This document shows, in pieces, positions 46,871 through 63,951 of a stretch of DNA of 64,000 nt (positions are counted from its first letter, which is position 1; each line of letters starts with the position of its first letter). Under the pieces are notes generated by a model. It searched no databases and was not told the origin of the DNA. It was given only the letters and a program-made list of their open reading frames with translations. The stretch lies in assembly GCA_050692985.1 (NCBI GenBank), contig JBOGVZ010000047.1:76533-140532 (forward strand). The letters are read 5' to 3'. The DNA is from Actinomycetota bacterium (GTDB lineage Bacteria > Actinomycetota > UBA4738 > CALAEC01). Made by a program: the position numbers and the translations under genes.

Positions 46871-46965
46871 CATCTTCCCTAAGTACGGAGCGAGCCGCCA
46901 CCGATGCTGGGATCGGCCGCGACCGGCGTCCGGGAGACGTGTGGTAAAAGCAGATCCGAGCGACA

Positions 46966-49322
46966 TGCCTGGGGGGGAACGCGTCGAAGGCGGCCGGGAT
47001 CCCCTCGACACGCCACCTCCGAGCCTCCCGGTCGACGAGGCCCGAACGATCGCCGAGCGCGTCTTCGGGGTGCGCGGATCGGTCTCCGCGCTGCGGAGTG
47101 AGCGGGACCAGAACTTCCGGGTCGATGCGGAGAGCGGACGCGGATACGTCCTCAAGGTCTCCAACCCCGCCGACGACCGGTCGGTCATCGAGATGCAGGC
47201 CGAGTCGCTGCTGCATGTCCGGCGCCAGGGTCCAGATCTGCCGGTGATGCGCCTCCTGCCGACGCCAGACGGAGCCCTGTGGGGGGAGATCCCGGGACCC
47301 CGGGACGATCCCCTTCTCGTGCGGATGTTCACCCTCATGCCGGGGCGGATGGTGAGGCCCGGGGAGCTGGATCACCGGGCCCTGGCCCGCTTCGGGCGGC
47401 TGGTGGCTCGGATGGGGCTGGCCCTCCGTGGGTTCTTCCACCCCGCCGCCGACTACGAGATCCTGTGGGATCTCAAGCACGCCCCCCGGCTACGGCCGCT
47501 CCTGGATGCCGTCGAGGAACCCGGCCGGCGCTCGCTGGCCGAGGGGGTGCTCGACCGGTTCGAGGAGCGCGTGGCGCCGGTCCTGGACGGCCTGCGGGCG
47601 CAGGTCATCCACAACGACCTGACGATCGACAACGTCCTCCTCGACGATGGGCGGAGGGTCAGCGGCATCGTCGACTTCGGCGATCTCACCCACACGGCCC
47701 TGGTCTGCGATCTGGCGATCGCGCTGGCCTCGCTGATGTGGGAGCGACCCGACCCCTTCGAGGCCGCCGCGGCGGCGATCCGCGGCTACGTCGAGGTGCT
47801 GCCCCTCGAGGAGCCGGAGGTTGATCTCCTCGGCGACCTGGTGGCCGCCCGGGTTGCCGCATGGGGCGTGATCGCGGCGTGGCGCGTCCGTCGGTTCCCC
47901 GACAACACCGACTACATCACCGCGGGCGACGATGCCGCGTGGCGCCTCCTCGAGGACCTCGACCGGATCGGGCCGCCTGAGGTCGGGCGGCGGCTCCGAG
48001 AGACCGGGCTCGATGCGCCTCTCCCGTACCGGAGGGTCCGCAGCGAGGAGCTCCTGGAGCGCCGCCGCCGGGTGCTCCGACGATCGCCGCTGACGTACGA
48101 GAGACCGGTGCACCTCGTCCGGGGGGAAGGGGTGTGGATGTTCGATCCGCACGGGCGACGGTACCTGGACGCGTACAACAACGTGCCCGTCGTGGGGCAC
48201 GGTCATCCACGGGTGACGGCGGCGGTCGCGGAACAGGCCCGCAGGCTGAACACGAACACCCGCTACCTGCACGAGGCCGCGGTGGAGCTTGCCGAGAGAC
48301 TGGTGGCCACGATGCCCGGCGACCTCGACACGGTCCTGTTCGTCAACTCGGGGAGCGAGGCCAATGACGTCGCGTGGCGCCTGGCCCGGGCAGCGACCGG
48401 CGGGGATGGGGCCATCGTCACCGAGCACGCCTACCACGGCATCACCGAAGCGACCGCGGCGCTGTCACCGGAGGAGTGGGCGAGGGGCGAGTGCCCCGGG
48501 CACGTCGAGCTCGTGCCGGCCCCGGACGGGTACCGGGGGCGGTACCGACGCGAGGACGGAGGGTGGGCCGAGCGGTACGCGGCGCACGTCGGAGAGGCCG
48601 TGGCCAGGCTGAGGGAGCGCCCGATGCGGCTCGCGGCGATGTTCGTCGATCCGGCCTCGACCAGTGACGGCGTCCTGGTCCCGCCGGATCCCTACCTCCG
48701 AGGGGTGGCCCCGCTGGTCCGGGAGGCGGGAGGCCTGCTGGTGGCTGACGAAGTGCAGGCGGGTCACGGCCGATACGGCTCGCATCTATGGAGCTTCCAG
48801 GCCTCCGGCGTGGAGCCGGACATCGTCACGTTGGGCAAGCCCATGGGCAACGGACATCCGGTGGCGGCGGTGGTGACCAGGGCCGAGATCCTCGATGCGC
48901 TCACCAGAGACACCGAGCTGTTCAGCACGTTCGGCGGCAACCCGGTGTCCTGTTCCGCGGCCCTGGCCGTGCTCGAGGTGATCGAGGAGGAAGCGCTCAT
49001 GCAGCGCGCGGCGACGGTCGGCGCCTACCTGCGGAGGGGCTTCGAACGGCTGAGCGAGGCCCACGTACAGATCGGCGACGTCCGGGGCGAGGGCCTCCTC
49101 ATCGGCGTCGAGCTCGTTCGCGACCGGCAGACGCGCGAGCCGGCACGGCAGGAGGCCGGGGCCGTGGTCAACACCATGCGGGAGCGCGGTGTCCTGCTCC
49201 GCTCGACGGGGCCGGAGGGGAACGTGCTGAAGATCCGGCCCCCGCTGGTCTTCACCGGTGAGCACGCGGACCTGCTCCTGGGAACGCTGGCCGCCGTGCT
49301 GGACGATGTGGACCATCGATGA
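46966..49322 (+). CDS. Fusion of an APH/choline-kinase-like phosphotransferase domain with a class III aminotransferase (kinase + PLP phospho-lyase-type architecture)
   Basis: N-terminal half ...YVLKVSNPADD...VIHNDLTIDNVLLDDGRRVSGIVDFGD (Brenner HxD and DFG-like). C-terminal half ...VNSGSEANDVAWRLAR...LLVADEVQAGHGRYGSHLWSFQASGVEPDIVTLGKPMGNG. Confidence 0.85.
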
Positions 49323-51021: not shown

Positions 51022-51112
51022 GCCCGGCCGCCGATCTCCCGGGGAGACCGGAGCGGGGTCATACGCTCCAGCAGCGGTGTGCGCCGGCGCCGGGATGCGT
51101 TTCCGCAGGTCG

Positions 51113-51187
51113 TGCGCCCGGAGGGACTCGAACCCCCAACCTCCTGATCCGTAGTCAGACGCTCTGTCCAAATTGAGCTACGGGCGC
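51113..51187 (-). tRNA. tRNA-Arg (anticodon ACG)
   Basis: Reverse complement GCGCCCGTAGCTCAATTTGGACAGAGCGTCTGACTACGGATCAGGAGGTTGGGGGTTCGAGTCCCTCCGGGCGCA folds as a cloverleaf with 7-bp acceptor stem, anticodon loop CTACGGA and a GTTCGAGTC T-loop. CCA is not encoded. Confidence 0.85.
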
Positions 51188-51191
51188 TGCG

Positions 51192-51280
51192 CGGAGGCGG
51201 TGCGATTTGAACGCACGAGGGGCTTGCACCCCAACGGGATTAGCAATCCCGCGCCATAGACCAGACTAGGCGACGCCTCC
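51192..51280 (-). tRNA. tRNA-Ser (anticodon GCT), class II with long variable arm
   Basis: Reverse complement GGAGGCGTCGCCTAGTCTGGTCTATGGCGCGGGATTGCTAATCCCGTTGGGGTGCAAGCCCCTCGTGCGTTCAAATCGCACCGCCTCCG, with anticodon stem CGGGA/TCCCG and loop TTGCTAA. Confidence 0.85.
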
Positions 51281-51365
51281 TCCTCCGACCAAAGTGTACC
51301 GGACCGTGGCCGGCGGGGAACCGCCCGGAGGGAGGACGCTGGGGCGGCACGGCTACAATGGCCGC

Positions 51366-52229
51366 ATGGCCCAGGGCACCAGCGGCACCCCCTCACCCGT
51401 CCTGGGGATCGCGGGTCCCGTCATCCTCATCGGTGGCGCCGAGGACAAGCGGCGCGACAAGGTCATCCTGAGCCGGTTCGTGGAGCTTGCCGGAGGCCCG
51501 AACGCCAACATCGTGGTCATCAGCACCGCCTCGACGTTCGCGGAGCTGGCGGCGGAACGGTACGTCGAGCTGTTCTCCGAGCTGGGAGCCGGAGTCGTCA
51601 CCGGCGTCCGCCCCCTGTCACGTGAGGAGGCCAACGACCCCGCCACGGTCGCCCCCCTGGCCACGGCCACGGGGGCGTTCCTCACCGGCGGCAACCAGGT
51701 CCGGCTGATCTCCACGGTCGGGGGGACCCGGCTCGAGGACGCCCTGGCCTCGGCCCGTGACCGCGGGGCGGCCATCGCGGGGACCTCGGCCGGGGCGAGC
51801 GCCGCGGCCACCCACATGGTGGCCTTCGGCCGGTCGGGGGCCAGCCCCAAGCACCGCATGATCCACATCTCGGCCGGACTGGGCCTGGTGGACGGGATCA
51901 TCGTGGACCAGCACTTCGAGCAGCGCGGACGCATGGGCCGGCTCCTGGCCGCGGTGGCCCTGTCCCCCCGCTTGATCGGCATCGGGCTCGACGAGGACAC
52001 GGCCGCCATCATCTGGCCGGACCGCACGCTGGAGGTGATCGGGAAGGGGTCGGTGACGATCGTGGACGGCTCCCAGATCGCCACGGACTCGTTCCAGATG
52101 AAGGGCCACCGCCCCATGATGGTCTCCGGGGCCATCGTCCATGCCCTCCCCACGGGGTTCCGGTTCGACCTGCGGGGGCGGCGGCTGATCGAGGTGAGCG
52201 AGCCCGAGGTCCGGGAGGCCTCCGAGTGA
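51366..52229 (+). CDS. cphB: Cyanophycinase (S51 peptidase)
   Basis: ...PVILIGGAEDKRRDKVILSRFVELAGG...AIAGTSAGASAAATHM (Ser nucleophile)...GLGLVDGIIVDQHFEQRGR. An alternative upstream GTG start exists at 51294. Confidence 0.85.
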   Translation: MAQGTSGTPSPVLGIAGPVILIGGAEDKRRDKVILSRFVELAGGPNANIVVISTASTFAELAAERYVELFSELGAGVVTGVRPLSREEANDPATVAPLATATGAFLTGGNQVRLISTVGGTRLEDALASARDRGAAIAGTSAGASAAATHMVAFGRSGASPKHRMIHISAGLGLVDGIIVDQHFEQRGRMGRLLAAVALSPRLIGIGLDEDTAAIIWPDRTLEVIGKGSVTIVDGSQIATDSFQMKGHRPMMVSGAIVHALPTGFRFDLRGRRLIEVSEPEVREASE

Positions 52230-55081
52230 GCCGGCCCGCCCGATCCTCCCCGAAGGGGTCCCGCACGGCGTCCAGGGATGCCCGGGCCAGGGCCAAGCGC
52301 GAGCCGGCCTCCAAGAAGCCGCCGGCCCGGCCCGACCTGAAGATCCTCAAGACCCAGGTGTTCCGGGGACCAAACTACTACTCGTACGACCCCACCATCC
52401 GCCTGCTGGTCGACCTGGGCTCGCTGGAGCACTGGCCGTCGAACACGATCAAGGGCTTCAACACGGCGCTGCGGGAGCTGCTCCCGGGTATGGCGGACCA
52501 CTCCTGCTCGCTGGGACGGCAGGGCGGCTTCCTGGAGCGGCTCGACGACGGCACCTGGCTGGGCCACGTGGCCGAGCACGTGGCCCTGGAGCTCCAGCGC
52601 GAGGCGGGGACGCACATCTACCGGGGCAAGACCCGCAGCGCCGGAGCCCCCGGCCGCTACAACGTGATCTACGGGTACAGCGAGGAGCGGGTGGGGCTGG
52701 CCGCCGGCACCCTGGCCGTGCGGCTGGTCAACCACCTGGTCGAGGCCGAGGAGGCATTCGACTTCCTGGCCGAGCTGGAGAGGCTCATCCTCCTGGCGGA
52801 GCGGCGGGCCTTCGGCCCATCCACCCAGGCGCTCATCGACGAGGCCGCCAGCCGCGACATCCCCTACATCCGGCTCAACGAGGCGTCCCTGGTCCAGCTC
52901 GGTCAGGGCACCTACCAGCGGCGGATCCGGGCCACGATGACCTCGCTCACCCCGGCCCTGGCCGTGGACATAGCCGGAGACAAGAACCTCACGAACCGGT
53001 TGCTGGGTGCCGCCGGGTTGCCGGTCCCCCGCTCGGAGACCGTGCGCACCGAGGACGACGCGGTGGCCGCGGCCAAGCGGATCGGGTTCCCCGTGGTGAC
53101 CAAGCCCCTGGACGGGAACCACGGCCGCGGGGTGAGCCTGGAGCTCGCCACCGAGCGGGACGTGCGCCGGGGGTGCAGGCGGGCCCGGGACGAGTCCCGC
53201 CGGGGGGTCGTGGTCGTGGAGAGCTACGTGACCGGCAACGACTACCGGGTGCTGGTCATCGGTGGCCACATGGTGGCGGTGGCCCAGCGGGTCCCTGCCC
53301 ACGTGATCGGCGACGGCACCCACACGGTCCGCGAGCTGGCCGACATCGCCAACGAGGACCCCCGTCGGGGCATCGGGCACGAGAAGGTGCTCACCAGGAT
53401 CAAGGTGGACGAGGCCGCCGAGGCCCTGGTCAGGAAGCAGGGCTACGCGCTCGATGACGTCCTCCCCGAAGGCGAGATGGCCCTGCTGGTGGCCACCGGC
53501 AACATGTCCACCGGGGGCAGCTCGATCGACCGCACCTGGGAGGCCCACGAGGAGAACGTGGAGATCGCCGAGGAGGCCGCCCGGGTGGTCGGCCTGGACG
53601 TGGCCGGCATCGACTTCCTGACGCCCGACATCTCCCAGCCCGTCCGGGAGACCGGCGGAGCCATCGTGGAGGTCAACGCGGCCCCCGGCTTCCGGATGCA
53701 CACCCATCCCACCGAGGGCGAGCCGCAGTACGTGGCCAAGCCGGTGGTGGACCTGTTGTTCCCCCCCGGGTCACCGTCCCGGATCCCGATCGTGGCCGTC
53801 ACCGGCTCGAACGGGAAGACCACCACCGTTCGGATGATCGCCCACATCTTCGAGCGCATGGGGCGGAAGGTGGGCGTCACCACCACCGACGGCATCTACG
53901 TCGACGGCCGCCTGGTGCGGAAGGTAGACGCCAGCGGCCCCAAGTCGGCGCTGATGGTCCTCCAGAACCCCCGCGTGGACTTCGCCGTGTTCGAGGTGGC
54001 CCGGGGCGGGATCCTCCGTGAGGGTCTGGGCTACGGGCGAAACGACGTGGCCGTGGTGCTCAACGTCACCGGAGACCACCTGGGGCTGAAGGACGTCGAC
54101 TCCCTGGAGGACCTGGCCGAGGTCAAGCGGGTCGTCGTGGAGGCCGTCCCCCGGACCGGCATGGCCGTGCTCAACGCCGACGACCCCCTGGTGGCCGACA
54201 TGCGCAAGCACACCCGCGGCTCCGTGGTGCTGTTCTCGATGGAGGACCGCAGCGAGCTCGTTGAGCGGTGGGTCCGGCGGGGGAACAAGGCCGTCACGCT
54301 CGAGCGCGACGACCGGGGAGAGCGCATGGTGATCCGCGAGGGTCGCCGGTCGATGCCGATCGCCTACACCCACAACCTGCCGGCCACGTTCAACGGCCGG
54401 GCCCGGATGATGGTCCAGAACGCCCTGGCCGCCGCGGCGGCCGCCCATGCCGCCGGCGCCCACCTCCACGACATCCGCCAGGGGCTGCGGACGTTCACGA
54501 CCTCGATCTTCCAGGCACCGGGACGCCTGAACCTGGTCGACCTGGCCGGGATCAAGGTGCTGATCGATTACGCCCACAACCCCCACGGACTGGAGATGGT
54601 GGGCGACTTCGTGGAGCGCATCACCGCCGAGGCACCCGGTGGCGCCCCGCCCGGTGCGCCGTCGTGGTCGGCCAACCTGCGGGTTGCGGTGGTGGCCACC
54701 CCCGGCGACCGCCGCGAGGACGACATGCGGGAGCTGGGCCGGGTGGCCGCCCGATACTTCGACGACGTCATCATCCGGGAGGACGAGCATCCCCGCGGCC
54801 GCAAGCGCGGTGAGACCGCGGCGTTCATCCTGGAGGGCGTGCAGGAGGCCATGCGGGCCGGTGCCCGGGCGGGCAGCGTGGAGATCGTGCTCGAGGAGGA
54901 CGAGGCCGCCCGGCGGGCCCTGGACCGCAGCCGGCCGGGCGACCTGGTGGTGGTGTGCGTGGACCACGCCGACCGGGTGTGGCGAGAGCTCGAGACCCGC
55001 CGCAAGGCCGCCCTGGGCCTGCCGCCAACGGCCGGCGATGGCCAGGGCGCCGAGATCCCGGAGCTGGCCCCGGAGCTCTGA
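52226..55081 (+). CDS. cphA: Cyanophycin synthetase (N domain + ATP-grasp G domain + Mur-ligase M domain)
   Basis: GTG overlapping the cphB stop. ...VVTKPLDGNHGRGVSLEL (ATP-grasp) ... IVAVTGSNGKTTTVRM (Mur-ligase P-loop) ... IDYAHNPHG. Confidence 0.9.
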   Translation: MSRPARSSPKGSRTASRDARARAKREPASKKPPARPDLKILKTQVFRGPNYYSYDPTIRLLVDLGSLEHWPSNTIKGFNTALRELLPGMADHSCSLGRQGGFLERLDDGTWLGHVAEHVALELQREAGTHIYRGKTRSAGAPGRYNVIYGYSEERVGLAAGTLAVRLVNHLVEAEEAFDFLAELERLILLAERRAFGPSTQALIDEAASRDIPYIRLNEASLVQLGQGTYQRRIRATMTSLTPALAVDIAGDKNLTNRLLGAAGLPVPRSETVRTEDDAVAAAKRIGFPVVTKPLDGNHGRGVSLELATERDVRRGCRRARDESRRGVVVVESYVTGNDYRVLVIGGHMVAVAQRVPAHVIGDGTHTVRELADIANEDPRRGIGHEKVLTRIKVDEAAEALVRKQGYALDDVLPEGEMALLVATGNMSTGGSSIDRTWEAHEENVEIAEEAARVVGLDVAGIDFLTPDISQPVRETGGAIVEVNAAPGFRMHTHPTEGEPQYVAKPVVDLLFPPGSPSRIPIVAVTGSNGKTTTVRMIAHIFERMGRKVGVTTTDGIYVDGRLVRKVDASGPKSALMVLQNPRVDFAVFEVARGGILREGLGYGRNDVAVVLNVTGDHLGLKDVDSLEDLAEVKRVVVEAVPRTGMAVLNADDPLVADMRKHTRGSVVLFSMEDRSELVERWVRRGNKAVTLERDDRGERMVIREGRRSMPIAYTHNLPATFNGRARMMVQNALAAAAAAHAAGAHLHDIRQGLRTFTTSIFQAPGRLNLVDLAGIKVLIDYAHNPHGLEMVGDFVERITAEAPGGAPPGAPSWSANLRVAVVATPGDRREDDMRELGRVAARYFDDVIIREDEHPRGRKRGETAAFILEGVQEAMRAGARAGSVEIVLEEDEAARRALDRSRPGDLVVVCVDHADRVWRELETRRKAALGLPPTAGDGQGAEIPELAPEL

Positions 55082-55083
55082 GC

Positions 55084-56247
55084 GTGCCGAACCTCGGCGA
55101 CTTCCAGATCGAGGTCTACCTGGCCGGCATGGCGGGGACCCGGCCGGAGTTGCCGGTGGTCCTGGCCGAGCTGGAAGGGAGGGCCAGGGAGGTGCTGGCC
55201 CCGGAGGCCTACGACTACGTGGCCGGCGGAGCGGGGTCCGAGGATACCGTGCGGGAGAACCTGGAAGCGTTCCGCCGGTGGCGCATCGTGCCCCGGCACC
55301 TCCGGAACGTGGAGTCGCGGGACCTGTCGGTGGAGGTGTTCGGCCGCCGGCTGCCGGCCCCGGTGCTGCTGGCGCCGATCGGGGTCCAGGGGATCGTTCA
55401 CGACGATGCCGAGGTCGCGGTGGCCCGGGCGGCCTCGACCCTCGGGGTGCCGGTGGTCCTGTCGACGCTGTCCTCGAAGACGATGGAGGAGGTCGCCGAG
55501 GCCTGCGGCGACGGCCCCCGGTGGTACCAGCTCTACTGGCCGAACGACCCCGAGCTGACCAAGAGCTTCCTGTCCCGGGCCCGGTCGGCCGGGTTCGAGG
55601 CGGTTGCCGTCACCGTGGACACCAACCTGCTGGCCTGGCGGCCCCGGGACCTGCAGCACGCGTTCCTGCCGTTCCTGGCGGGCAAGGGCATCGCCAACTA
55701 CCTGTCCGACCCGGTGTTCCTGGCCGCCCTGGAGAAGGGCCCCGAGGACGACCCCCTGGCCGCCGTCATGCGGTGGGGTGCGGTGTATCCCCATCCCACG
55801 GCGGTGTGGGAGGAGCTGGCGTTCATCAAGGAGCACACCTCGCTGCCGGTGCTGCTGAAGGGGATCCTCCACCCGGACGACGCCCGCCGGGCGGTGGACC
55901 TGGGGATGGACGGGATCATCGTGTCGAACCACGGCGGGCGGCAGGTGGACGGGGCGGTGGCCACCCTGGACGCCCTCCCCGGCGTGGTGGAGGCGGTGGC
56001 CGGGCGGGTGCCGGTACTGCTCGACTCGGGCATCCGCACGGGGGCGGACGCGCTGAAGGCCCTGGCCCTGGGGGCCACGGCCGTCCTGCTGGGGCGGCCG
56101 TACATCTGGGGACTGGCCGCAGGCGGCGAGGCCGGGGTCCGCCACGTGGTGCGTTCGTTCCTGGCCGACCTCGACCTGACCATGGCTCTGGCCGGCCTGG
56201 AGACGGTGGATGCGGTGACGCCGGACGTCCTCATCCGGCGCCCCTAG
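55084..56247 (+). CDS. FMN-dependent alpha-hydroxy-acid dehydrogenase/oxidase (L-lactate oxidase / mandelate dehydrogenase family)
   Basis: GTG 3 nt after the cphA stop. ...YDYVAGGAGSEDTVRENLEAFRRWRIVPR...VSNHGGRQVDGAVATLDALP...DSGIRTGADALKALALGA. Confidence 0.85.
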   Translation: MPNLGDFQIEVYLAGMAGTRPELPVVLAELEGRAREVLAPEAYDYVAGGAGSEDTVRENLEAFRRWRIVPRHLRNVESRDLSVEVFGRRLPAPVLLAPIGVQGIVHDDAEVAVARAASTLGVPVVLSTLSSKTMEEVAEACGDGPRWYQLYWPNDPELTKSFLSRARSAGFEAVAVTVDTNLLAWRPRDLQHAFLPFLAGKGIANYLSDPVFLAALEKGPEDDPLAAVMRWGAVYPHPTAVWEELAFIKEHTSLPVLLKGILHPDDARRAVDLGMDGIIVSNHGGRQVDGAVATLDALPGVVEAVAGRVPVLLDSGIRTGADALKALALGATAVLLGRPYIWGLAAGGEAGVRHVVRSFLADLDLTMALAGLETVDAVTPDVLIRRP

Positions 56248-56397
56248 CGCCTGCTAGACCCGTCCGCACCGAGGGCTGCCTGCAGACCATGGCCACGATC
56301 ACGAACCTGTCCCAGACGGGGGGCCGACCCGGCGGCCTCGATGGACCGGGCCTACACGTTGAGCACCGCCGGCGGTAGGTAGGCCCCCCCGGCGCCC

Positions 56398-56793
56398 CTA
56401 CGCGGGGTCGAGGTCCAGGGCGACGGAGTTGATGCAGTACCGCTGGCCCGTGGGGGCGGGGCCGTCGTCGAAGACGTGGCCCAGGTGGGAGCCGCACCTC
56501 CGGCACAGGACCTCGGTGCGGGTCATGCCGTGGCTGTCGTCGGGGCGCAGCTCCACCGCCTGGGCCACGGCCGGCTCGGTGAAGCTGGGCCATCCGGTCC
56601 CCGAGTCGAACTTGGCATCGGAGCGGAACAGCTCCGCGCGGCAGGCCGCGCACCGGTACACCCCCTCGTCCTTGCTGTAGACGTACTGGCCGGTGAACGG
56701 CGGCTCGGTTCCCGCCTTCCGCAGGATCTCGTACTGGGCCGGGGTCAGCCGGGCCTTCCATTCCTCGTCGGTGAGGTTCCGTTCCGTGTCCAT
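56398..56793 (-). CDS. msrB: Peptide-methionine (R)-S-oxide reductase
   Basis: ...[26 protein letters not shown]...[21 protein letters not shown] (CxxC x2 zinc site and the catalytic Cys region). Confidence 0.9.
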
Positions 56794-56803
56794 GGCTCCT
56801 CTC

Positions 56804-56876
56804 CACTGGGGGGTTCGCTCGCCATCCGATCCCGACGCCGACCCACCCGGGGCGAGCTACCCCCCCGGACCCCCCT
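56804..56876 (+). repeat. Copy D1 of the ~73-nt hairpin repeat (CACTGGGGGGTTCGCTCGCC-ATCCGATCCCGACGCCGACCCACCCGG-GGCGAGCTACCCCCCCGGACCCCCC)
   Basis: First unit of a tandem pair between the hydrolase stop (56992) and the msrB start (56793), both on the minus strand. Confidence 0.85.
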
Positions 56877-56877
56877 C

Positions 56878-56950
56878 CACTGGGGGTTCGCTCGCCATCC
56901 GATCCCGACGCCGACCCACCCGGGGCGAGCTATCCCCCCCGGACCCCCCA
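56878..56950 (+). repeat. Copy D2, near-identical tandem duplicate of D1 (including the loop sequence)
   Basis: Differs from D1 by one G fewer in the 5' run and an extra T in the 3' arm. The repeat period is 74 nt. Confidence 0.85.
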
Positions 56951-56991
56951 GGCTACTCCTCGGCGCCGACAACGCTGCCCACGCCCGCTGG

Positions 56992-58293
56992 TCAAGGGGT
57001 GCCGTGGAGGAGCGCGTCCCCGAAGAACGCCAGGACCCGGCGGCCCCACTCCTCGGGGTGCGTCCAGATCGCCCGGGTGTGGCGGGTATCCGGGACCTCC
57101 CACAGGTCGGTGGAGTGGGGCGCCGCGGCCCGGTACCGGCGGTTGAGGAGCGATTCGGTGCGGTCCTCGCCCGAGATCAACAGGACCGGACGGGGCGCGA
57201 TCCGGGCCATGGCCTCCTCGGTCGGGATGGGCGGCTCGGCGGGGGTCATCAGGTCGACCGCGGTGAATCCCAGGAGGTAGAAGGGCAGGCTGAACGCCCC
57301 GCGGAGGCCCAGGGCCCGCGCGTCGGCGAACGAGAACGCCCTGGCGCCCTCGGCCACCACGGCTCCGATCCGGGGGTCCGCAGCCGCCGATGCGAGGGCC
57401 TCCCCGGCCCCCATCGAGAGTCCTAGGACACCGATGCGGCCGGGATCGACGTCGTGCCGGTGGGCCAGGTAGGAGACCGCGGGTTCGACGTCCAGCGCCC
57501 CGAACCAGCCCACGTCCATCGCCACCCCGTCGCTCTGGCCGTGGCCCCTGGCGTCGATCGCCAACACGCCGTAGCCCGCCCGACCGAGCACGGCGATGTG
57601 ATCGAGGACGTCGGACCGCGTCGAGCCCGACCCGTGCAGGACGATCACCGCCGCCGCGTTGTCCGAGGGAACGTACCAGCCCCCGAGGCGGACGCCGTCT
57701 TCCGTTCGCAAGGTGACGTTCCGATAGTCGAGACCGACCTCCGCGGGGGTGCGTCCCGACGGCAACGTGGTGGGCACGTGCGTCATGTACACCGCGACCG
57801 TCAGAGGCAGCATGACGTAGTAGACGAACAGCAGCCCGATCGGCACCGCCAGCACCAGCCGCCGGCGGACCTCGCTGAGGATCACCAACGACCCGAGCGC
57901 CAGGAGGGCGATGCCCGCCGCCAATGAGGAGACGCCCAGGAGATCGAACTCCGACAGGCCCAGCTTGACGACCCGGACCACGGTGATGGCGACGCCGGCC
58001 GCGGTCGCGGCGGCGCCGATGGCCAGGGCAAGGAGGGCCCGCACGAGGCGTCCGGACCGACGGAACCACACCACGGCGATCCCCGACAGCCCCACCGCCA
58101 GCGCCGAATCCCACAGTCGCGCCATCACCGAGCGGTCCGACGTCCTGACGGTGAGACCGGTCAGCAGGTGGAGACACACCAGCGCGATGGCCACCGAGAA
58201 GACGACCGATGGACGGCGCCAGGCGCTGGTGGACGAATCCTCCAACCGGGACGTCGCCACCGGCGACTCGAGGCGATCCTTGCCCGTATCCAC
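56992..58293 (-). CDS. Membrane-anchored alpha/beta hydrolase (about four N-terminal TM helices plus a dienelactone-hydrolase/S9-like domain)
   Basis: ...AAVIVLHGSGSTRSD...VLGLSMGAGEALASAA (GxSxG)... Confidence 0.7.
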   Translation of the reverse strand: MDTGKDRLESPVATSRLEDSSTSAWRRPSVVFSVAIALVCLHLLTGLTVRTSDRSVMARLWDSALAVGLSGIAVVWFRRSGRLVRALLALAIGAAATAAGVAITVVRVVKLGLSEFDLLGVSSLAAGIALLALGSLVILSEVRRRLVLAVPIGLLFVYYVMLPLTVAVYMTHVPTTLPSGRTPAEVGLDYRNVTLRTEDGVRLGGWYVPSDNAAAVIVLHGSGSTRSDVLDHIAVLGRAGYGVLAIDARGHGQSDGVAMDVGWFGALDVEPAVSYLAHRHDVDPGRIGVLGLSMGAGEALASAAADPRIGAVVAEGARAFSFADARALGLRGAFSLPFYLLGFTAVDLMTPAEPPIPTEEAMARIAPRPVLLISGEDRTESLLNRRYRAAAPHSTDLWEVPDTRHTRAIWTHPEEWGRRVLAFFGDALLHGTP

Positions 58294-58465
58294 CCTCTCC
58301 GCTCCGTCGGTCCCGTTTCCGTCGGGCGACGCTGGCCCAACGCCCAGGCCCGCATACTACGAGATGCAGGGGCCCGGCTCATCGGGTTCCGGCCCCGCGC
58401 CCGGAACGGGGCCGTCGAGGAGCGGTTCGATCCACCCTGCCCCATGGGGCGCCTATCCTCGGGAC

Positions 58466-59194
58466 GTGCTGGTGAAGGCATGCCTCAACGGTGGGCGAGC
58501 GAAGCACGAGCACCCGGCCGTGCCCATCTCCCACCCGGAGCTGGCCCTTGACGCCTACCAGGCCGTGGCTGCCGGGGCCGGGGGCGTGCACGTGCACCCC
58601 CGCCAGGCCGACGGGTCCGAGACCGTGGAGGCGGGAGCCTGCGCCCTGGCCCTGACGGCGATCCGCCGGGTGGTCCCCGGGACGCCGGTGGGGCTGACCA
58701 CCGCGGCCTGGATCGAGCCGGACCCCGACCGCCGGCGGTGGGCCGTGGCCCGGTGGGAGGTCCTCCCCGACTTCGCCTCGGTCAACGTGTCCGAGGAGGG
58801 CTGGGGGGACCTGGCCGCCACGCTGCTCGACCTGGGCGTGGGGGTGGAGGCCGGGCTGGCCTCGGTGGAGGACGCCGAGGCCCTGGCCCGGAGTGGGCTG
58901 GCCGGCCGCTGCCTGCGCGTGCTGGTCGAGGTTCCCCAAGAGGACCCGGCGGAGGCCGTGGCCGCGGCGGCACGGATCGAGGCCGCGCTCGACGACGCCG
59001 GGATCGAGGCGCCGCGGCTCCACCACGGAGAGGGCCCGGCCACCTGGGCGGTCGTGGAGGCGGCGGTCCTCCGGGGGCGGGACGTCCGGGTGGGGCTGGA
59101 GGACACCCTGGTCCTCCAGGACGGGAGGCCGGCCAGGGACAACGCCGAGCTCGTCCGCGCGGGCGTCCGCGTGGCGGGCCGGGGACGGGCCTAG
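58466..59194 (+). CDS. BKACE-family (3-keto-5-aminohexanoate cleavage enzyme-like, DUF849) protein
   Basis: VLVKACLNGGRAKHEHPAVPISHPELALDAYQAVAAGAGGVHVHPRQADGSE... aligns with the N-terminus of Kce-type enzymes. GTG start is uncertain. Confidence 0.6.
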   Translation: MLVKACLNGGRAKHEHPAVPISHPELALDAYQAVAAGAGGVHVHPRQADGSETVEAGACALALTAIRRVVPGTPVGLTTAAWIEPDPDRRRWAVARWEVLPDFASVNVSEEGWGDLAATLLDLGVGVEAGLASVEDAEALARSGLAGRCLRVLVEVPQEDPAEAVAAAARIEAALDDAGIEAPRLHHGEGPATWAVVEAAVLRGRDVRVGLEDTLVLQDGRPARDNAELVRAGVRVAGRGRA

Positions 59195-60924
59195 GGACGC
59201 GCTGGGGCCGGGGCCGGGCCCCGAGCCCGGCGGGCCAGCTGGCGGCACCGGGCCGGGCCGACCCGGCGGCCCCCCCGGCCGCGGATCTCCTCGAAGATCT
59301 CCGGCCGCTGCCCCAGGGCGGTCACCGTCACCACGTCTCCGGGTCGGGAGCGCTCCAGCATCCAGCGCAGGGCGTGGAGCTCGTCTGGGAACAGGGGCAC
59401 GTCGGTGGCGCCGCCCTCGAGCGCCCCGGCCCGAAGCCGCTCGACGACATCCTCGGGCCTGCGCCCGCGCAGGTATCTCGTGAGCTCCGAGATGGCCACG
59501 TGGTCCGCCCCGCGGGCGGCGATCAGGCCGAGACCGTGCATGATCCCGTCGGAGCGGTCCCCGGCGGAGCAGTACGAGAGCCACACCTCGGCCCCGGGCC
59601 GGCGCAAGCCGCGGGCGATCTCCACCAGGCCGGACATCCCGGCCTCGTTGTGCGCGTAGTCCACGACCACCACCCGCCCCTCGAGCTCGAACAGGTTTGC
59701 CCGGCCGGGGTTGGCCTCCGGGTCGAGCACGAAGGTGCGCAGTCCTTCGACCACGTCACCGCGAGAGACGCCCGCCCCCAGCGCCGCCGCGGCGGCGGCC
59801 ATGGCGTTCTGGGTGTACGGGCCGGAGATCCCGGCCAGCGTCACGGGGACCGCCTCCACCTCGACCAGCGGCTCGATGGCCGGGCCCGGCAGGAACAGGG
59901 TCAGGTGACGATCGAGGGGGGCCAGGGCCCGGCCGCCCTCCGCCAGGGCCGCCCGGATGGCCGGGTGGTCGGGGTCGAGCGAGAACAGGAACGGCCGGCC
60001 CCGGGCCAGCCGCCGCATGGCCAGGACGCGGGGGTCGTCGGCGTTCAGCACGTCCCAGCCGTGGGGACGGGTGATCCGAGTGATCGTCGACTTGACCTCG
60101 GCCAGCTGGTCGAGGGTGTGGATGCCGTGGAGGCCCAGGTGGTCGGCGGAGACGTTCGTCACCACGGCCACGTCGTTGTGGAGCGTCCCGATGCCCTTGA
60201 GCAGGATGCCGCCCCGGGCCACCTCCAGAACGGCCATCTCCACGCCCGGCTGGGACATTGCCATGGCCGCGCCGGCAGGCCCCGAGTAGTCCCCCTCTTC
60301 CACCATCTCTCCATCGACGTACACCCCGTCCGTGGACGTGTAGGCCACCCGCAGCCCGGCCGCGCGGACCAGGTGGGCCACGAGGCGGACCGTGGTCGTC
60401 TTCCCGTTCGTGCCGGTGACCATCACCACGGGGATGGCCGGTACCGGAACCGAAGGGACCGGTCCCTGGTCGATGGCGGCGATGCGTCCGGCCGCCCCGG
60501 CCACCAGGCGGTCCAGCCCCCGGCGGGAGGTGAGCAGCGTCCCCAGCACGCCGACGACCTCCCTCCCCAGCGCCTCCGCCAGCGCCTGGCGACGCCACGG
60601 GTAGGCCACCACGATCCGGTCGCGCCGCTCGCCCGGCCTGGCCCGGACCGCCAGGCGAACGCCCGAGGCCTCGGCCAGCGCCCTCACCACGTGGGCCGCG
60701 GTGCGGGCCGCGAAGCGGCGGCGCTGCTCGGACCGGGGTTCGCCCGGACGGATCCCCCGCCCGGGGAGCCCAGCCCGCCTGGCGGCGCCCGAGACCTTCG
60801 CCTCGCCGGCATCGAGCCACCCGGGGACCGCGAGCGTGAGCTTGATGGCCGGCCGCGTGAAGTACAGGTTCGGCCCGTGGAGGACCCGCAGCTCCGTCAG
60901 GCGAACCGCCGCCCCCTTCGCCAT
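59191..60924 (-). CDS. CphA-like protein with a cyanophycin-synthetase N domain fused directly to a Mur-ligase domain, no ATP-grasp domain
   Basis: MAKGAAVRLTELRVLHGPNLYFTRPAIKLTLAV (CphA N-domain signature) ... VVMVTGTNGKTTTVRL (Mur-ligase P-loop) ... VVDYAHNEAG. There is no ATP-grasp motif anywhere. It is convergent with and 4-nt overlapping the BKACE gene. Confidence 0.75.
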   Translation of the reverse strand: MAKGAAVRLTELRVLHGPNLYFTRPAIKLTLAVPGWLDAGEAKVSGAARRAGLPGRGIRPGEPRSEQRRRFAARTAAHVVRALAEASGVRLAVRARPGERRDRIVVAYPWRRQALAEALGREVVGVLGTLLTSRRGLDRLVAGAAGRIAAIDQGPVPSVPVPAIPVVMVTGTNGKTTTVRLVAHLVRAAGLRVAYTSTDGVYVDGEMVEEGDYSGPAGAAMAMSQPGVEMAVLEVARGGILLKGIGTLHNDVAVVTNVSADHLGLHGIHTLDQLAEVKSTITRITRPHGWDVLNADDPRVLAMRRLARGRPFLFSLDPDHPAIRAALAEGGRALAPLDRHLTLFLPGPAIEPLVEVEAVPVTLAGISGPYTQNAMAAAAAALGAGVSRGDVVEGLRTFVLDPEANPGRANLFELEGRVVVVDYAHNEAGMSGLVEIARGLRRPGAEVWLSYCSAGDRSDGIMHGLGLIAARGADHVAISELTRYLRGRRPEDVVERLRAGALEGGATDVPLFPDELHALRWMLERSRPGDVVTVTALGQRPEIFEEIRGRGGRRVGPARCRQLARRARGPAPAPARP

Positions 60925-60974: not shown

Positions 60975-63263
60975 TCAGCCGGACGACCTGAACGCCCGGA
61001 GGGCGGGCAGGAGCTCCGGCGGGAGCCGGCCACCGAACAGCCCCCGGGCCATGGCGTCGAGCAACCCGCCGGTGGAGGCCGGGTCCAGGAGGGAGGGGCC
61101 CGGGGTGGCGGGGACGGAGGTCGCAGCGACCGAGGTGTCACCCGAGGAACCGGGCCCTCCGATCTTCTCGCCCTTGTCCTTCCCCGCCAGCACCAGGATC
61201 GCCGAGGACACCGCTCGCTCTGACCCGTCGGAGGGGACGTTGACGATCTTCCCCGCCACCACCATGGTGCTGGAGCCTCCCCCGTCGAGGTTCAGCGCCG
61301 ACTTCGCCCCCATGTCCCGGAACAGGCGAGCGAACCTGACCAGCTTCATGCCCTTCGAGCCCTTCCGCCGCCCGTCCACCACGACGAGGAGGAGGCGGTC
61401 GTTCCCGGTCACCCCGATCCCGGTCCGGGGATGCCGCCCGCAGATCGGGGCCCCGCACGGCTCGGCCACCACCGCCCCGTCGCGCACCAACCGGGGCATC
61501 CCCCCCATCGAGTCGGCAACCTTCTTCCACCGGAAGGACCAGGTGAGGGACACCGTCTCCCCGGGCCGGAGCGACTGGATCTGGATCCCCCCCTGGCTGC
61601 CGGGCTGGGCGGACAGCACCACCCCGCCCTTGCGCCCCATCCGCGACTTGCGGCACGCCACCGCGTCGACCTCGTAGTCGCGGCGGACGCCGTTCATGCC
61701 CGGGGCCCACCGCCGGGGGCCGTCGGGCATGAGGCGAGCCGAGCACGCGTGCTTGGGCGGGCGGCCGTGCTTGGCTCGCCCCGCCGGGCTGTAGGCGGCG
61801 ATCTCCCCCCAGGTCGGCACCCCGTCGTTCCACCGGTCGAACGTCCACACGTCGTTGCTGTCGGCCTCCAGGACCTTCAGCACCTCCACCGCGTTCCCGA
61901 TGCGGGGATTCCGCTCGTCCGCGCGGATCGCGAAGTTGTTGGAGCCGGCCAGCGAGCTGGTCTTGAGATCGCCGTCCTCGGCGAAGGGGTGCGAGGGCTT
62001 GCCCGAGGGCAGGGGGAAGTCGCCGTTGATCGCGGCCACGGCGCCGTGCCGCTTGGCCATGGAGGAGGTTCGCTCCCGGCCGGGCAACACGTTCCCCCCC
62101 AGGGCCACGTCCATCGTCGGTTGCTTGGAGGGGTCCACCTTCAGCACGTACACGTCGCTCCGGGCGTAGCGGCCCTTGATCAGCTGCACGCCCTTCATCA
62201 CCCCGCTGGTCTTCGACCTGTTCAGCGCGGACCCAACCTGCCCCCCGCCGCCGCCCGACGAGGCCTTGGGGCCCGATGATCGACCGGCCGAGGAGGGCGG
62301 GGGAGAGTCCTGGCCCCGCGGCAGCAGGGCCCCGCCGGACCAGCTCGGCGACAGCTCGGCTCGCTTCGTCTCCAGGACCTTGTGAGCCTCGGTGCCGTCG
62401 GCCCGCATGACCCACAGGTCCTTGTCGCCCCCGCCCGGCGGGTAGGCGGAGAACGCGACGTGCTGGCCGTCCGGGGACCAGGCGGCCTGGACCTCGTTCC
62501 GTCCCGTGGTCGTCAGCCGGGTTTGTCCGGAGCCGTCGGCGTTCATCGTGAACAGCTCCCAGCTCCCGCCCGGGCAGCACCGGTCGAACAGGATCCGGGA
62601 CCCGTCCGGAGACCATGCCGGGTTTCCCTCGATGCGCTTGCCGGTCCGGGTCAGGCGCTCCCGGCCCGTGCCGTCCGCGTTCGCCACCCATAGGTCGGGG
62701 AAGCCGGAGTCTCGGTCGCTGACGAACGCGATCCTCGAGCCATCGGGTGACCACGCGGGGCTGGAGTCGAACCGTCCGGAGACGGCATCGGTCACGGCCG
62801 TGGCGCCGCTCCCGTCGGCGTTCATCGTGAAGATCTGGGAGACGCCCTGGAAATGGATGCTGCGCGTCCAGGCGATCCGGGTCCCATCCGGGCTCCACGC
62901 GGGCTGACGATCGATCGGTCCACCGAAGTCCTGGGTGAGCCGGAGCTCGTTCCCCACCGCGTCACGGACGTAGATGTCCGGGGAGGGGTTGGTGGCCAGC
63001 TTCCGGGCGAAGGCGATCCGGGCCCCGTCCGGGGACCACGCCGGGTCCAGCTCCTGGGCGCCCGGTGTCTGGGTGAGGTTCGTCACAGAGCCGGTCGCCG
63101 GGTCCACGGTGAGGAGGTCGAAGCCACCCTTCCGGGCCCCCGCGAAGACCACCTCGCCGCCGAACAGCGGCAGCCCCACCTGGCCGGCCACGGGGGCTGG
63201 CGGCGGCGCCAGCAGCGCCGCCGACACCAGGAGGACGAGTGCTGCCCGTGCCCGCCGTGTCAA
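60975..63263 (-). CDS. Secreted fusion of TolB-like beta-propeller repeats with a C-terminal phosphodiester-glycosidase (NAGPA-like) domain
   Basis: Signal-like LTRRARAALVLLVSAALLA. Repeated PAWSPDG(S/A)RIAF blades. C-terminal ...ALNLDGGGSSTMVVAGKIVNVPSDGSERAVSSAILV. TTG/ATG start choice is uncertain; the listed ORF start at 63491 lies upstream of the terminator hairpin and is unlikely. Confidence 0.7.
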   Translation of the reverse strand: MTRRARAALVLLVSAALLAPPPAPVAGQVGLPLFGGEVVFAGARKGGFDLLTVDPATGSVTNLTQTPGAQELDPAWSPDGARIAFARKLATNPSPDIYVRDAVGNELRLTQDFGGPIDRQPAWSPDGTRIAWTRSIHFQGVSQIFTMNADGSGATAVTDAVSGRFDSSPAWSPDGSRIAFVSDRDSGFPDLWVANADGTGRERLTRTGKRIEGNPAWSPDGSRILFDRCCPGGSWELFTMNADGSGQTRLTTTGRNEVQAAWSPDGQHVAFSAYPPGGGDKDLWVMRADGTEAHKVLETKRAELSPSWSGGALLPRGQDSPPPSSAGRSSGPKASSGGGGGQVGSALNRSKTSGVMKGVQLIKGRYARSDVYVLKVDPSKQPTMDVALGGNVLPGRERTSSMAKRHGAVAAINGDFPLPSGKPSHPFAEDGDLKTSSLAGSNNFAIRADERNPRIGNAVEVLKVLEADSNDVWTFDRWNDGVPTWGEIAAYSPAGRAKHGRPPKHACSARLMPDGPRRWAPGMNGVRRDYEVDAVACRKSRMGRKGGVVLSAQPGSQGGIQIQSLRPGETVSLTWSFRWKKVADSMGGMPRLVRDGAVVAEPCGAPICGRHPRTGIGVTGNDRLLLVVVDGRRKGSKGMKLVRFARLFRDMGAKSALNLDGGGSSTMVVAGKIVNVPSDGSERAVSSAILVLAGKDKGEKIGGPGSSGDTSVAATSVPATPGPSLLDPASTGGLLDAMARGLFGGRLPPELLPALRAFRSSG

Positions 63264-63340
63264 GCGCCCAACCCTAGAGAGGTCCGCCGGGAAGGTCAAG
63301 AAGCCCCAGCCGACGAAGCCGCCAAACCCCATGAATGGAA

Positions 63341-63365
63341 CGGGGGCGCCCGAAGGCGCCCCCGT
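63341..63365 (-). terminator. Intrinsic-terminator-like hairpin (9-bp GC stem, UUCG tetraloop on the minus-strand transcript) after the gene ending at 63400
   Basis: On the minus strand: GGGGGCGCC-UUCG-GGCGCCCCC followed by GUUCCAUUCAU, about 35 nt downstream of the stop of ORF 63400..63951. Confidence 0.55.
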
Positions 63366-63399
63366 CTCGTCATCCGGGCTCGGCACCCGGATGCCCGCC

Positions 63400-63951
63400 C
63401 TACGGCTGGGGCAGCATCCCGAAGGACTCCGGCGTGAGCAGGAACACGTCCTCGGTCTGTGCACCCTCCGAGCTGCCGGTCCCGGGCTCATCGTTCTGGT
63501 TGAAGAACGTGATCTCCAGGTGAGCGTCCTGGGGACCGCCGAGCCAGTTGTGGACCAGGACCCGGTAGTGGCCCGGGGGCAGCCGCCCGGCCGTCAGCAG
63601 CTCGTGGTCCAGCGGCTCGTTCGTGGCCTGGGTGAGGGTCTCCCACCCACCACCCTCGGCCGCCCGCTGGAGGAACAGGTCCAGGTCGGCGGCGATCGTG
63701 GGGGTGGCCAGCACCTCCACCCGGGCGTTGTCGAAGCCCTCCTCCGAGTCGAACTCGAACCCGGCGGCGGTGATGGGCTCCACCCGCTGTCCCAGTCCGG
63801 GAGCGGGAACCAGGACGTTCCCCTCGATCGGGCCCTGAGCGGGCCCCAGCGGGAAGTCCACCCGGTTCTCGAACACCTGCACGTCCTGGCGGAGCAGGAA
63901 CCTCGAGAGGGACGGCAGATCGTACGTCGTGGCCTCCGGGCCGGTGAACAC
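63400..63951 (-). CDS. Hypothetical protein (may extend upstream beyond the listed Met toward the window end)
   Basis: ORF with a coding-like composition (…YRVLVHNWLGGPQDAHLEITFFNQNDEPG…). I recognise no family. Confidence 0.4.
   Translation of the reverse strand: MFTGPEATTYDLPSLSRFLLRQDVQVFENRVDFPLGPAQGPIEGNVLVPAPGLGQRVEPITAAGFEFDSEEGFDNARVEVLATPTIAADLDLFLQRAAEGGGWETLTQATNEPLDHELLTAGRLPPGHYRVLVHNWLGGPQDAHLEITFFNQNDEPGTGSSEGAQTEDVFLLTPESFGMLPQP

Follow-up and report, generated by a model that had tools for sequence, protein, structure and literature searches.

A cyanophycin synthetase relative built of an N and an M domain, without an ATP-grasp domain, is encoded tail-to-tail with cphA1-cphB in Actinomycetota

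The window, a stretch of 64,000 nucleotides from an Actinomycetota bacterium, contains an ordinary locus for making and degrading cyanophycin, a nitrogen-storage polymer, and a gene for a second CphA relative. This 577-aa protein, here referred to as NM, consists of N and M domains only. The features of the region are as follows:

51112-51187, minus strand: tRNA-Arg(ACG)
51191-80, minus strand: tRNA-Ser(GCT)
51294..52229, plus strand: cphB, cyanophycinase (TIGR02069, 239 bits, cut-off 127)
52226..55081, plus strand: cphA1, complete with N, G and M domains (TIGR02068, 1158 bits over the full model, cut-off 850)
55084..56247, plus strand: FMN-dependent alpha-hydroxy-acid dehydrogenase/oxidase (Pfam FMN_dh, 427 bits)
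59191..60924, minus strand: NM gene, from its ORF and Pfam/NCBIfam domains
60475..60924, minus strand: NM N domain, residues 1-150, CphA-type, without the Zn-peptidase motif
60859..60876, minus strand: GPNLYF loop, NM residues 17-22, family-invariant by motif and alignment
59725..60438, minus strand: NM Mcore, residues 163-400, Mur-ligase central ATP-binding domain (Pfam Mur_ligase_M, 78 bits)
60391..60414, minus strand: NM P-loop GTNGKTTT, residues 171-178, family-invariant
60133..60147, minus strand: NM ADHLG motif, residues 260-264, with D261 and H262 invariant
59290..59724, minus strand: NM Mlid, residues 401-545, Mur-ligase C-terminal domain (Pfam Mur_ligase_C, 39 bits)

Both tRNA genes lie on the minus strand, so that the pair is divergent from cphB, whose real start is probably an ATG near 51366. 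The TGA stop of cphB and the GTG start of cphA1 overlap as GTGA, and the GTG start of the FMN_dh gene follows 2 nt past the cphA1 stop. Pfam assigns Cyanophycin_syn, ATP-grasp and Mur ligase domains to the window's CphA1, in which the primer-generating motif Cx19HxxEH is intact (52505-52579). A BKACE ORF is convergent with NM and overlaps its 3' end by 4 nt. A preliminary description of this DNA had reported the tRNAs, cphB, cphA1, the FMN oxidase, NM and BKACE, and all of its sequence-level statements were borne out.

Pfam finds Mur_ligase_M and Mur_ligase_C in NM and nothing else, and neither Pfam nor NCBIfam gives a match to an ATP-grasp domain. The AlphaFold2 model of NM (pLDDT 90.8, pTM 0.89) likewise contains the N domain, Mcore and Mlid as its sole domains, with no cryptic G domain, in agreement with the proposal that the ATP-grasp domain is missing. 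The pTM of the full model indicates that the predicted packing of N against M is confident. GPN loop and P-loop are spaced 153 aa apart in NM and 479 aa apart in CphA1, so that NM is shorter by 326 aa. The G domain of TeCphA1 (residues 162-487; PMC9427784) is exactly that long, and what NM lacks is thus precisely the G domain. Taken together, NM is a CphA-type N domain fused straight to a complete CphA1-like M domain. An identical protein, P0001, is encoded on a contig of 167,687 bp from an Actinomycetota MAG, and the databases name NM a "Mur ligase family protein" (NCBI) or a "cyanophycin synthetase" (JGI).

The N domain has diverged strongly in sequence. Residues 1-169 of NM give zero Pfam matches even at E<=10, and in six divergent family members Pfam likewise detects only Mur_ligase_M and Mur_ligase_C. 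An hhalign comparison of the NM N-terminus with the N domains of neighbouring CphA1 proteins is collinear over 123 columns, but weak (19% probability, P=0.0012). A phmmer search with the NM N domain against 1.84 billion representatives returned 205 matches; among the 150 listed none is of CphA1 length, all being of NM length or shorter save a 745-aa TPR fusion (P0130), so that the domain is not linkable to CphA1 by sequence alone. It is the structure that confirms the CphA N-terminal domain (PF18921 fold) whose signature had been suspected in NM. The Cx19HxxEH peptidase motif is absent, and the single sequence motif common to the N domains of NM and CphA1 is GPNxY. In NM this is the GPNLYF loop, with G17, P18, N19, Y21 and F22 invariant and the motif found in 198/198 members. 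The loop is the counterpart of the hydrophobic GPNYW loop of SuCphA1 (Y14/I17), which packs onto the M domain (PMC9262961). A basic N domain, as would suit a poly-anion binder, was considered as a family trait and rejected, as the median charge of +11 in the main clade is not shared by the divergent members (+6 to -14).

Residues 163-545 of NM form a complete Mur-ligase-type M domain. NM scores 358 bits against TIGR02068 (model positions 478-847) and only ~103 bits against the MurE model. Of the PDB chains, CphA1 reaches 233 bits, whereas the best MurE-like chain (8w9z_N) reaches 89 bits and bacterial MurE at most 70 bits. Within the window, the Mcore/M domain of NM shares 41% identity with the corresponding domain of CphA1. 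The GTNGKT, VK lysine, PGR, (D/Y)(Y/L)(A/G)HN (DYAHN in the window's protein) and GDR motifs are each found in all 198 NM members, E-x-ARGG in 196/198 and NADD in 197/198, so that the Mur-ligase catalytic residues are conserved in 196-198 of the 198 members. The NM P-loop is equivalent to that of the TeCphA1 M domain, which carries K499 and T500 (PMC9427784). NM D261/H262 align with D585/H586 of SuCphA1, the mutation of which inactivates the M domain (PMC9262961), and K278 aligns with the carbamylated-lysine position of MurE. Every catalytic motif that was checked is thus retained in NM.

These scores and motifs bear on two readings in which NM would have little to do with amino acid ligation onto cyanophycin. 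That NM is a Mur paralogue of the MurE, FolC or MurT type, or else a decaying cphA fragment, is very improbable: CphA1 is favoured by 250 bits, no curated Mur or FolC cut-off is reached (MurE TIGR01085, 102 bits vs 257; folC, 48.9 vs 162.65; MurT, 32.6 vs 800; PgsB, 20.2 vs 222.7), and the UDP-binding N-terminal domain of MurE is replaced by the CphA N domain. The expectation that NM is nearer to CphA than to MurE or FolC therefore holds. Decay is argued against by the best 120 matches, which are all full-length, and by the occurrence of full-length family members in hundreds of MAG species with a mean column identity of 68%. Alternatively, NM could be a non-catalytic partner that binds granules or CphA1 and regulates synthesis or degradation. 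The CphA N domain is a polymer-binding module (PMC9427784; PMC9262961) and in CphA2 the inactive domains confer nothing but stability (PMC10273328), which would suit such a role. However, the P-loop Lys/Thr, the Mg ligands, D261/H262, K278, GDR and PGR do not vary across some 200 sequences, which is unexpected for a pseudo-enzyme and makes a purely regulatory role improbable.

The conserved catalytic core is combined with a different lid. At the Mlid sites where CphA1 proteins from five lineages carry GDRRDxD and, at the position of the MurE DNPR motif, an acidic DDDxR segment (for the role of DNPR in MurE, see PMC3829189), NM carries GDR[S/T]D.I (residues 455-461) and YLRGR (residues 484-488), and the replacements GDR[S/T]..I and x-Y-x-R are family-wide. 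The predicted amino-acid pocket of NM thus appears to lack the acidic motifs seen in every compared CphA1 and to differ in charge, as judged from an alignment to the distant MurE rather than from a CphA1-Arg complex. GDRRDxD and DDDxR plausibly bind the guanidinium or ammonium group in CphA1. The differing charge implies that NM is probably not a simple duplicate of Arg addition. Furthermore, the M domain of NM is acidic (median net charge -8) compared to that of the neighbouring CphA1 (+3). In the M domains of 48 neighbouring actinobacterial CphA1 proteins, 197 columns are at least 95% conserved, and 117 of these are not identically conserved in NM. Residues specific to the NM family include Y213, L242, R299, N405, I461 and Y484.

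These differences weigh on the reading that NM duplicates the reaction of the CphA1 M domain. It would then attach Arg (or Lys) at the beta-carboxylate of a C-terminal Asp of cyanophycin that is still undecorated, and serve in trans as a booster or repair enzyme for chains that leave CphA1 after the G but before the M step. This role fits the closest relative of NM being the CphA1 M domain with all catalytic motifs kept, the retention of the N and Mcore module that in CphA1 holds the M-site substrate (PMC9427784), and the tight linkage to cphA1-cphB. The family-wide replacement of both acidic motifs speaks against it, as do the intact M domain already present in the neighbouring CphA1 and the greater divergence of the NM M domain from cyanobacterial CphA1 (233 bits) than is seen for actinobacterial CphA1 (333 bits). 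We regard it as rather unlikely, and the earlier suggestion of Arg or Lys addition by NM is weakened by the replaced acidic motifs.

The MAGs that carry NM belong to Actinomycetota or are labelled Dormibacterota. A true cphA1 lies within 10 kb of NM in 59 of 80 loci, on the convergent strand in every case (59/59) and mapped downstream of NM in 58, the exception abutting NM with a 20-bp overlap; where the sequence extends for at least 9 kb downstream, cphA1 is present in 41 of 47 loci. The gap between the two genes is often 6-134 bp, being <140 bp in 16 loci, and the most divergent NM members still adjoin cphA1, at 84 and 49 bp. The tail-to-tail arrangement of NM and cphA1-cphB spans the whole breadth of the family, and the tree indicates that the adjacency is ancestral; NM is unlinked from cphA1 in a few subclades (L082, L087, L035, L044, L057/58 and L078/79). 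The connection of NM to cyanophycin is thus stronger than the preliminary description could have known. The neighbouring CphA1 is complete, keeping Cx19HxxEH in 46/48 cases, so NM is not a substitute for a defective domain.

The convergent orientation also bears on the reading that NM ligates an amino acid to a small carboxylate metabolite, a peptide or some other substrate with no relation to cyanophycin, the adjacency to cphA1 being a remnant of the duplication from which NM arose. NM and cphA1, being convergent, do not share a transcript, and the loci come mostly from one broad lineage, so that inheritance rather than selection may account for part of the synteny. The linkage is lost in several subclades, the N domain varies in charge, and the differences at more than half of the conserved actinobacterial CphA1 M positions imply that the acceptor might not be cyanophycin at all. 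On the other side, the adjacency persists in members whose N domains share only 37-51% identity, and it is seen in two phylum-level bins. The N domain, which binds cyanophycin, and its M-interface loop are strongly conserved, and no alternative conserved neighbour of NM was found in the loci examined. An unrelated substrate therefore appears unlikely.

Neighbour content was scored by tblastn with the window's proteins together with called genes, as de novo ORF clustering was swamped by spurious high-GC ORFs. BKACE and an alpha/beta hydrolase, considered as conserved partners of NM, have no match in the 80 loci, and FMN_dh (2), MsrB (5) and a PD40/NAGPA protein (6 of 80 loci) are too rare to be parts of the system. 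The proposed coupling of the FMN oxidase to cphA1 stands for the window, with its 2-nt junction, but is lineage-specific: homologues occur only in L006 and L077, and adjoin cphA1 only in the latter. The gene is probably a neighbour in the window's subclade only, outside the conserved system. The BKACE, hydrolase and tRNA-pair context is likewise present in the window but a lineage-specific accident, and MsrB too is confined to particular lineages. Class-III aminotransferase matches lie upstream in 37 loci; their identity to the APH-aminotransferase fusion of the window is only about 34%, and nothing ties them to NM.

From the observed architecture, fold, catalytic motifs and linkage to cphA1-cphB, we infer a substrate, a reaction and a specificity: on balance, NM would be a functional protein of the cyanophycin synthetase superfamily, a stand-alone ATP-dependent ligase that acts on cyanophycin with altered specificity and works with the products of CphA1. 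The M site would use its P-loop and Mg ligands to bind ATP, and an incoming amino acid held on Mlid would attack the resulting acyl-phosphate with its amino group, yielding an isopeptide bond. As NM has no G domain, it would perform no poly-Asp extension and hence would have to work in trans on what the neighbouring CphA1 produces. Its N domain, having lost the Zn endopeptidase site, would only bind the substrate. NM would more likely add a different residue or use another acceptor position. Weighing against this explanation, the catalytic role is predicted from sequence and a model. The idea that NM decorates a bare poly-Asp backbone is speculation.

If NM is a ligase, it shows that the side-chain-adding module is able to function as an enzyme of its own, and it suggests an extra step in cyanophycin metabolism, be it finishing, repair or chemical diversification, in soil Actinomycetota. 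A more specific and only tentative possibility is a third CphA class, an M-only trans ligase that adds a non-Arg residue to cyanophycin, at the beta-carboxylate of the backbone Asp or the free alpha-carboxylate of Arg, giving a cyanophycin-like polymer of distinct chemistry, not seen before, in the soil Actinomycetota/Dormibacterota that have NM beside cphB-cphA1. Such a compact ligase may be of use for engineering the composition of cyanophycin, which is of interest as a biopolymer. The JGI label "cyanophycin synthetase" is a recurrent mis-annotation, as NM-type proteins are predicted to be incapable of making the backbone.

An N+M-only architecture had been regarded as uncharacterized, and no curated family or paper for such a CphA-type protein was found in the literature accessible to search. 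MurE (PDB 1E8C) has a UDP-MurNAc-binding N-terminal domain where NM has a CphA N domain, and the alignment of NM to E. coli MurE begins only at MurE residue 108; MurE-type genes belong to the context of the dcw cluster, whereas NM is found among cyanophycin genes. The closest sequence relative of NM is CphA1 (TIGR02068; PDB 7LG5, 7WAC, 7LGM, 7LGN), with which it shares the N-domain fold with the GPNxY loop, a full Mcore and Mlid, and the catalytic motifs. CphA1 differs in having the 326-aa ATP-grasp G domain, the Cx19HxxEH Zn-peptidase site in an N domain from which that of NM has diverged past Pfam detection, and the GDRRDxD and DDDxR motifs in Mlid. At 358 bits, NM has the M domain of CphA1 but stays below the 850 bits of a TIGR02068 equivalog, and being without a G domain it should be unable to make cyanophycin from Asp, Arg and ATP on its own. 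CphA2 (PDB 7TA5, 8FXH), in contrast, is cyanobacterial, polymerises beta-Asp-Arg dipeptides and consists of an N domain, an active G domain and a truncated, inactive M domain (PMC10273328). This agrees with the earlier description of CphA2 as the G-retaining type, of which NM is the reverse, with a full and apparently active M domain and no G domain. Cyanophycin synthesis is now described with two enzyme types, CphA1 (N+G+M) and CphA2 (N+G+dead M), to which NM would add a third.

The cyanophycin locus of the window and NM, the protein in which a CphA-type N domain is joined to a Mur-ligase M domain, comprise the following genes:

51112-51187, - strand: tRNA-Arg(ACG), predicted by ARAGORN
51191-51280, - strand: tRNA-Ser(GCT), predicted by ARAGORN
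51294-52229, + strand: cphB (cyanophycinase) ORF, TIGR02069 at 239 bits (cut-off 127)
52226-55081, + strand: cphA1, TIGR02068 at 1158 bits over the whole model
after cphA1, + strand: FMN-dependent dehydrogenase, Pfam FMN_dh at 427 bits
59191-60924, - strand: NM, a 577-aa ORF

The TGA stop of cphB is overlapped by the GTG start of cphA1, whose product carries the Pfam domains Cyanophycin_syn N, ATP-grasp, Mur_ligase_M and Mur_ligase_C, and the FMN enzyme has its GTG start 2 nt past the cphA1 stop. It is followed by MsrB (-), a putatively membrane-anchored alpha/beta hydrolase (-), BKACE (+) and NM (-), with the stops of the last two overlapping by 4 nt. ARAGORN, Pfam, NCBIfam and the ORF junctions agree with the preliminary description of the tRNAs, the cphB-cphA-FMN order and the convergence of NM with BKACE. 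There is nothing unusual about the cphB-cphA1 locus as such.

The tRNA genes (51112-51280, -) lie 3 nt apart and 14 nt from the start of the longest cphB ORF, and the presence of a tRNA-Arg gene beside the locus of an arginine-storage polymer is probably a coincidence. Upstream of this pair, 46752-49322 (+) encodes an 856-aa fusion of an APH phosphotransferase (Pfam APH, 92 bits) and a class-III aminotransferase (275 bits); in 37 of the 80 related loci, an unfused class-III aminotransferase, ~34% identical to the fusion and probably a different paralogue, lies 1.5-5 kb from NM on its upstream side. The hydrolase (56992-58293, -) is Hydrolase_4/Peptidase_S15-like, and its first ~200 residues have no Pfam match and appear hydrophobic by eye. 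The BKACE ORF (57911-59194, +) is 427 aa as listed; its true start is probably near 58450, because Pfam matches it only from residue 186 onwards and its counterpart in the related locus L081 has only 242 aa. On the same strand as NM, and ending 48 nt upstream of it, 60975-63491 (-) encodes an 838-aa protein that combines PD40 beta-propeller repeats with a NAGPA phosphodiester-glycosidase domain; the pairing is limited to the nearest relatives, namely 6 of the 80 loci plus L081.

Pfam matches NM only with Mur_ligase_M (residues 169-320) and Mur_ligase_C (407-536), and with no ATP-grasp family. The top NCBIfam match is the cyanophycin synthetase equivalog at 358 bits, restricted to model positions 478-847, which correspond to the M domain. 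MurE models score ~103 bits and folC 49 bits, none of them at its curated cut-off. Among PDB sequences, four CphA1 enzymes are matched on their M domains at 196-233 bits, compared to 89 bits for the best MurE-like chain and at most 70 bits for bacterial MurE. NM is thus nearer to CphA1 than to MurE or FolC, a relationship that the preliminary description had left to be decided, and it is extremely improbable that NM is the remnant of a gene or a ligase acting in peptidoglycan or folate synthesis. MurE, FolC, MurT and PgsB as identities of NM are ruled out by score and by the N-terminal domain.

BLASTP aligns NM 164-535 with residues 520-911 of the window CphA1 at 41% identity, and adds a marginal 23-residue match between the extreme N-termini. 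The full-length AlphaFold model (pLDDT 90.8, pTM 0.89) consists of an N domain, a Mur-ligase central domain and a Mur-ligase C-terminal domain, and nothing else. Between the GPN loop and the P-loop lie 153 aa (range 149-174) in 198 full-length NM members and 479 aa in 48 neighbouring CphA1s; the difference of 326 aa is the exact length of the G (ATP-grasp) domain of TeCphA1, residues 162-487 (PMC9427784). By Pfam, the predicted structure and this spacing, NM carries no cryptic ATP-grasp domain, as had been read from the window.

For the N-terminus, sequence methods barely see the likeness to CphA, and structure decides. Pfam gives no match even at E<=10, while residues 1-159, used as a phmmer query, retrieved 205 proteins from 1.84 billion representatives; the 150 listed are of NM length or shorter, except for one 745-aa TPR fusion, and include no protein of CphA1 length. 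With hhalign, the alignment to neighbouring CphA1 N domains is collinear over 123 columns (P=0.0012), at only 19% probability. The AlphaFold model of residues 1-158 (pLDDT 91.9) was compared to 350,542 chains with Foldseek: the top 15 are all CphA1 or CphA2 (probability 0.99-1.00) and every further match is at 0.41 or below. The predicted fold bears out the CphA-type N domain proposed earlier.

The sole N-domain motif common to NM and CphA1 is GPN(L/Y)(Y/W), invariant in NM. In SuCphA1, the hydrophobic GPN loop (Y14, I17) is the N-domain part packing against the M domain (PMC9262961), and therefore the N-M interface is what NM has preserved. Most CphA1 N domains are made primer-generating endo-cyanophycinases by a Cx19HxxEH metallopeptidase motif (PMC9262961), which the window CphA1 carries at 52505-52579 and 46 of the 48 neighbouring CphA1s share. 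Since it occurs in none of the 198 NM sequences, the N domain of NM, like that of CphA2, is predicted to serve in binding and to have no hydrolase activity. In the main clade this domain has a strongly basic character, with 16% Arg and a median net charge of +11 (neighbouring CphA1 N domain -1), and in divergent members its charge runs from +6 to -14.

The M domain has kept its catalytic motifs. All 198 members have the P-loop GTNGKT, the VK lysine, PGR, (D/Y)(Y/L)(A/G)HN (DYAHN in the window NM) and GDR; the Mg-ligand glutamate of E-x-ARGG is retained by 196 of them, and NADD by 197. At the position of the VK lysine, E. coli MurE has its carbamylated K224, and the invariant D261/H262 correspond in the alignment to D585/H586 of SuCphA1, mutation of which renders the M domain inactive (PMC9262961). 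By these motifs NM looks like a working ATP-dependent ligase, and a role as non-catalytic partner is very unlikely. The M domain is also consistently acidic (median -8; divergent members -11 to -18; CphA1 M domain +3).

The M domains of the 48 neighbouring actinobacterial CphA1s share 197 columns with a conservation of at least 95%, 117 of which are not identically conserved in NM. Two of the differences sit at the site that holds the incoming amino acid in Mur ligases. GDRRDxD, present in all CphA1 compared (Synechocystis, Trichodesmium, Tatumella, Acinetobacter, Actinomycetota), is GDR(S/T)D(G/E)I in NM. In MurE, the DNPR motif holds the amino acid that is added by its distal group, and in the S. 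aureus enzyme the lysine ammonium is contacted by the first Asp of the motif (PMC3829189). The corresponding position is an acidic segment in CphA1s (DDDKR, DDDLR, DEHPR) and x-Y-x-R in the whole NM family, most divergent members included (TRYLR, KPKYFR, KEKYRR). These changes suggest that NM would not recognize arginine as CphA1 does; that it performs the same arginine-adding reaction, as a booster or finisher, would fit the shared catalytic motifs and is nevertheless unlikely. Against cyanobacterial CphA1, the NM M domain scores 233 bits and the actinobacterial CphA1 M domain 333 bits, and this greater distance argues against NM being a recent copy of the neighbouring cphA1.

A search of 5.8 billion proteins returned thousands of matches to NM, the best 120 of which are all 563-614 aa, 65-73% identical at full length and named 'Mur ligase family protein' (NCBI) or 'cyanophycin synthetase' (JGI). 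GTDB species genomes contain at least 399 loci encoding NM relatives (399 of 599 returned stretches). The best 80 are all MAGs, most labelled Actinomycetota; 12, forming one NM clade (L014, L018, L023-L026, L031, L033, L041, L043, L047, L052), are labelled Dormibacterota or Chloroflexi. The family may span two phyla, or these bins may share a taxonomic mislabel. The labels come from different studies, and the clade has the tightest NM-cphA1 spacing (6-73 bp).

A true cphA1 (>55% identity to that of the window, inside the fetched flank) lies near NM in 59 of these 80 loci, always convergent and, in 58 cases, downstream of NM, as in the window; of the 47 loci whose downstream flank spans 9 kb or more, 41 have it. 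The stop-to-stop gap is <140 bp in 16 loci and <520 bp in 28, and cphB comes after cphA1 in 47. The most divergent members (37-51% N-domain identity) also adjoin cphA1 (P0265, 84 bp; P0130, 49 bp). Because tight adjacency is found in both the outgroup members and the Dormibacterota-labelled clade of a neighbour-joining tree, it probably represents the ancestral state; the window has acquired its 4.1-kb spacer later. That NM uses a substrate unrelated to cyanophycin and merely inherited its synteny is quite unlikely given this linkage, and would suit the few subclades (L082, L087, others) with NM and no cphA1 nearby. In the subclade of L082 and L087 (10001-12720), NM is followed by a DUF4349 gene on the same strand and then a convergent two-component system. 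P0130 (L086 6727-8964) is a 745-aa protein with a C-terminal TPR_5 fused to N + M, still tail-to-tail with cphA1-cphB.

Apart from cphA1 and cphB, no neighbour is conserved in the 80 loci, and the called genes of further contigs are also variable. None of the 80 has BKACE or the hydrolase; 2 have FMN_dh, 5 have MsrB and 6 have the PD40/NAGPA gene that lies upstream of NM. The BKACE and FMN-oxidase associations emphasized in the preliminary description are thus not conserved and are incidental, as the one with the tRNAs probably is.

The module kept by NM, N + Mcore (the central Mur-ligase part of the M domain), holds the M-site substrate in CphA1, and the backbone-building domain and primer-cutting site are lost. 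From the observed architecture, fold, catalytic-motif retention and linkage to cphA1-cphB we infer substrate, chemistry and specificity: as best supported, NM would be a stand-alone ATP-dependent side-chain ligase, acting in trans on cyanophycin or on intermediates of the neighbouring CphA1. The altered pocket points to the addition of another residue or the use of another acceptor position.

The finding is real and reproducible. Full-text literature searches, together with the survey of cyanophycin bioinformatics PMC10206079, turned up no such protein, and the characterised N+M-only family that would have spoken against the earlier reading was likewise not found there. Within a known enzyme family, NM represents a conserved and uncharacterised variant, strongly tied to cyanophycin metabolism by its genomic context. 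It would work like the M module of CphA1, from which it differs in having no G domain and in scoring 358 bits against the 850-bit cut-off of TIGR02068, and is thus not a CphA1. Compared to CphA2, which retains the G domain with a truncated and inactive M domain (PMC10273328), NM is the mirror image, as the preliminary description had stated.
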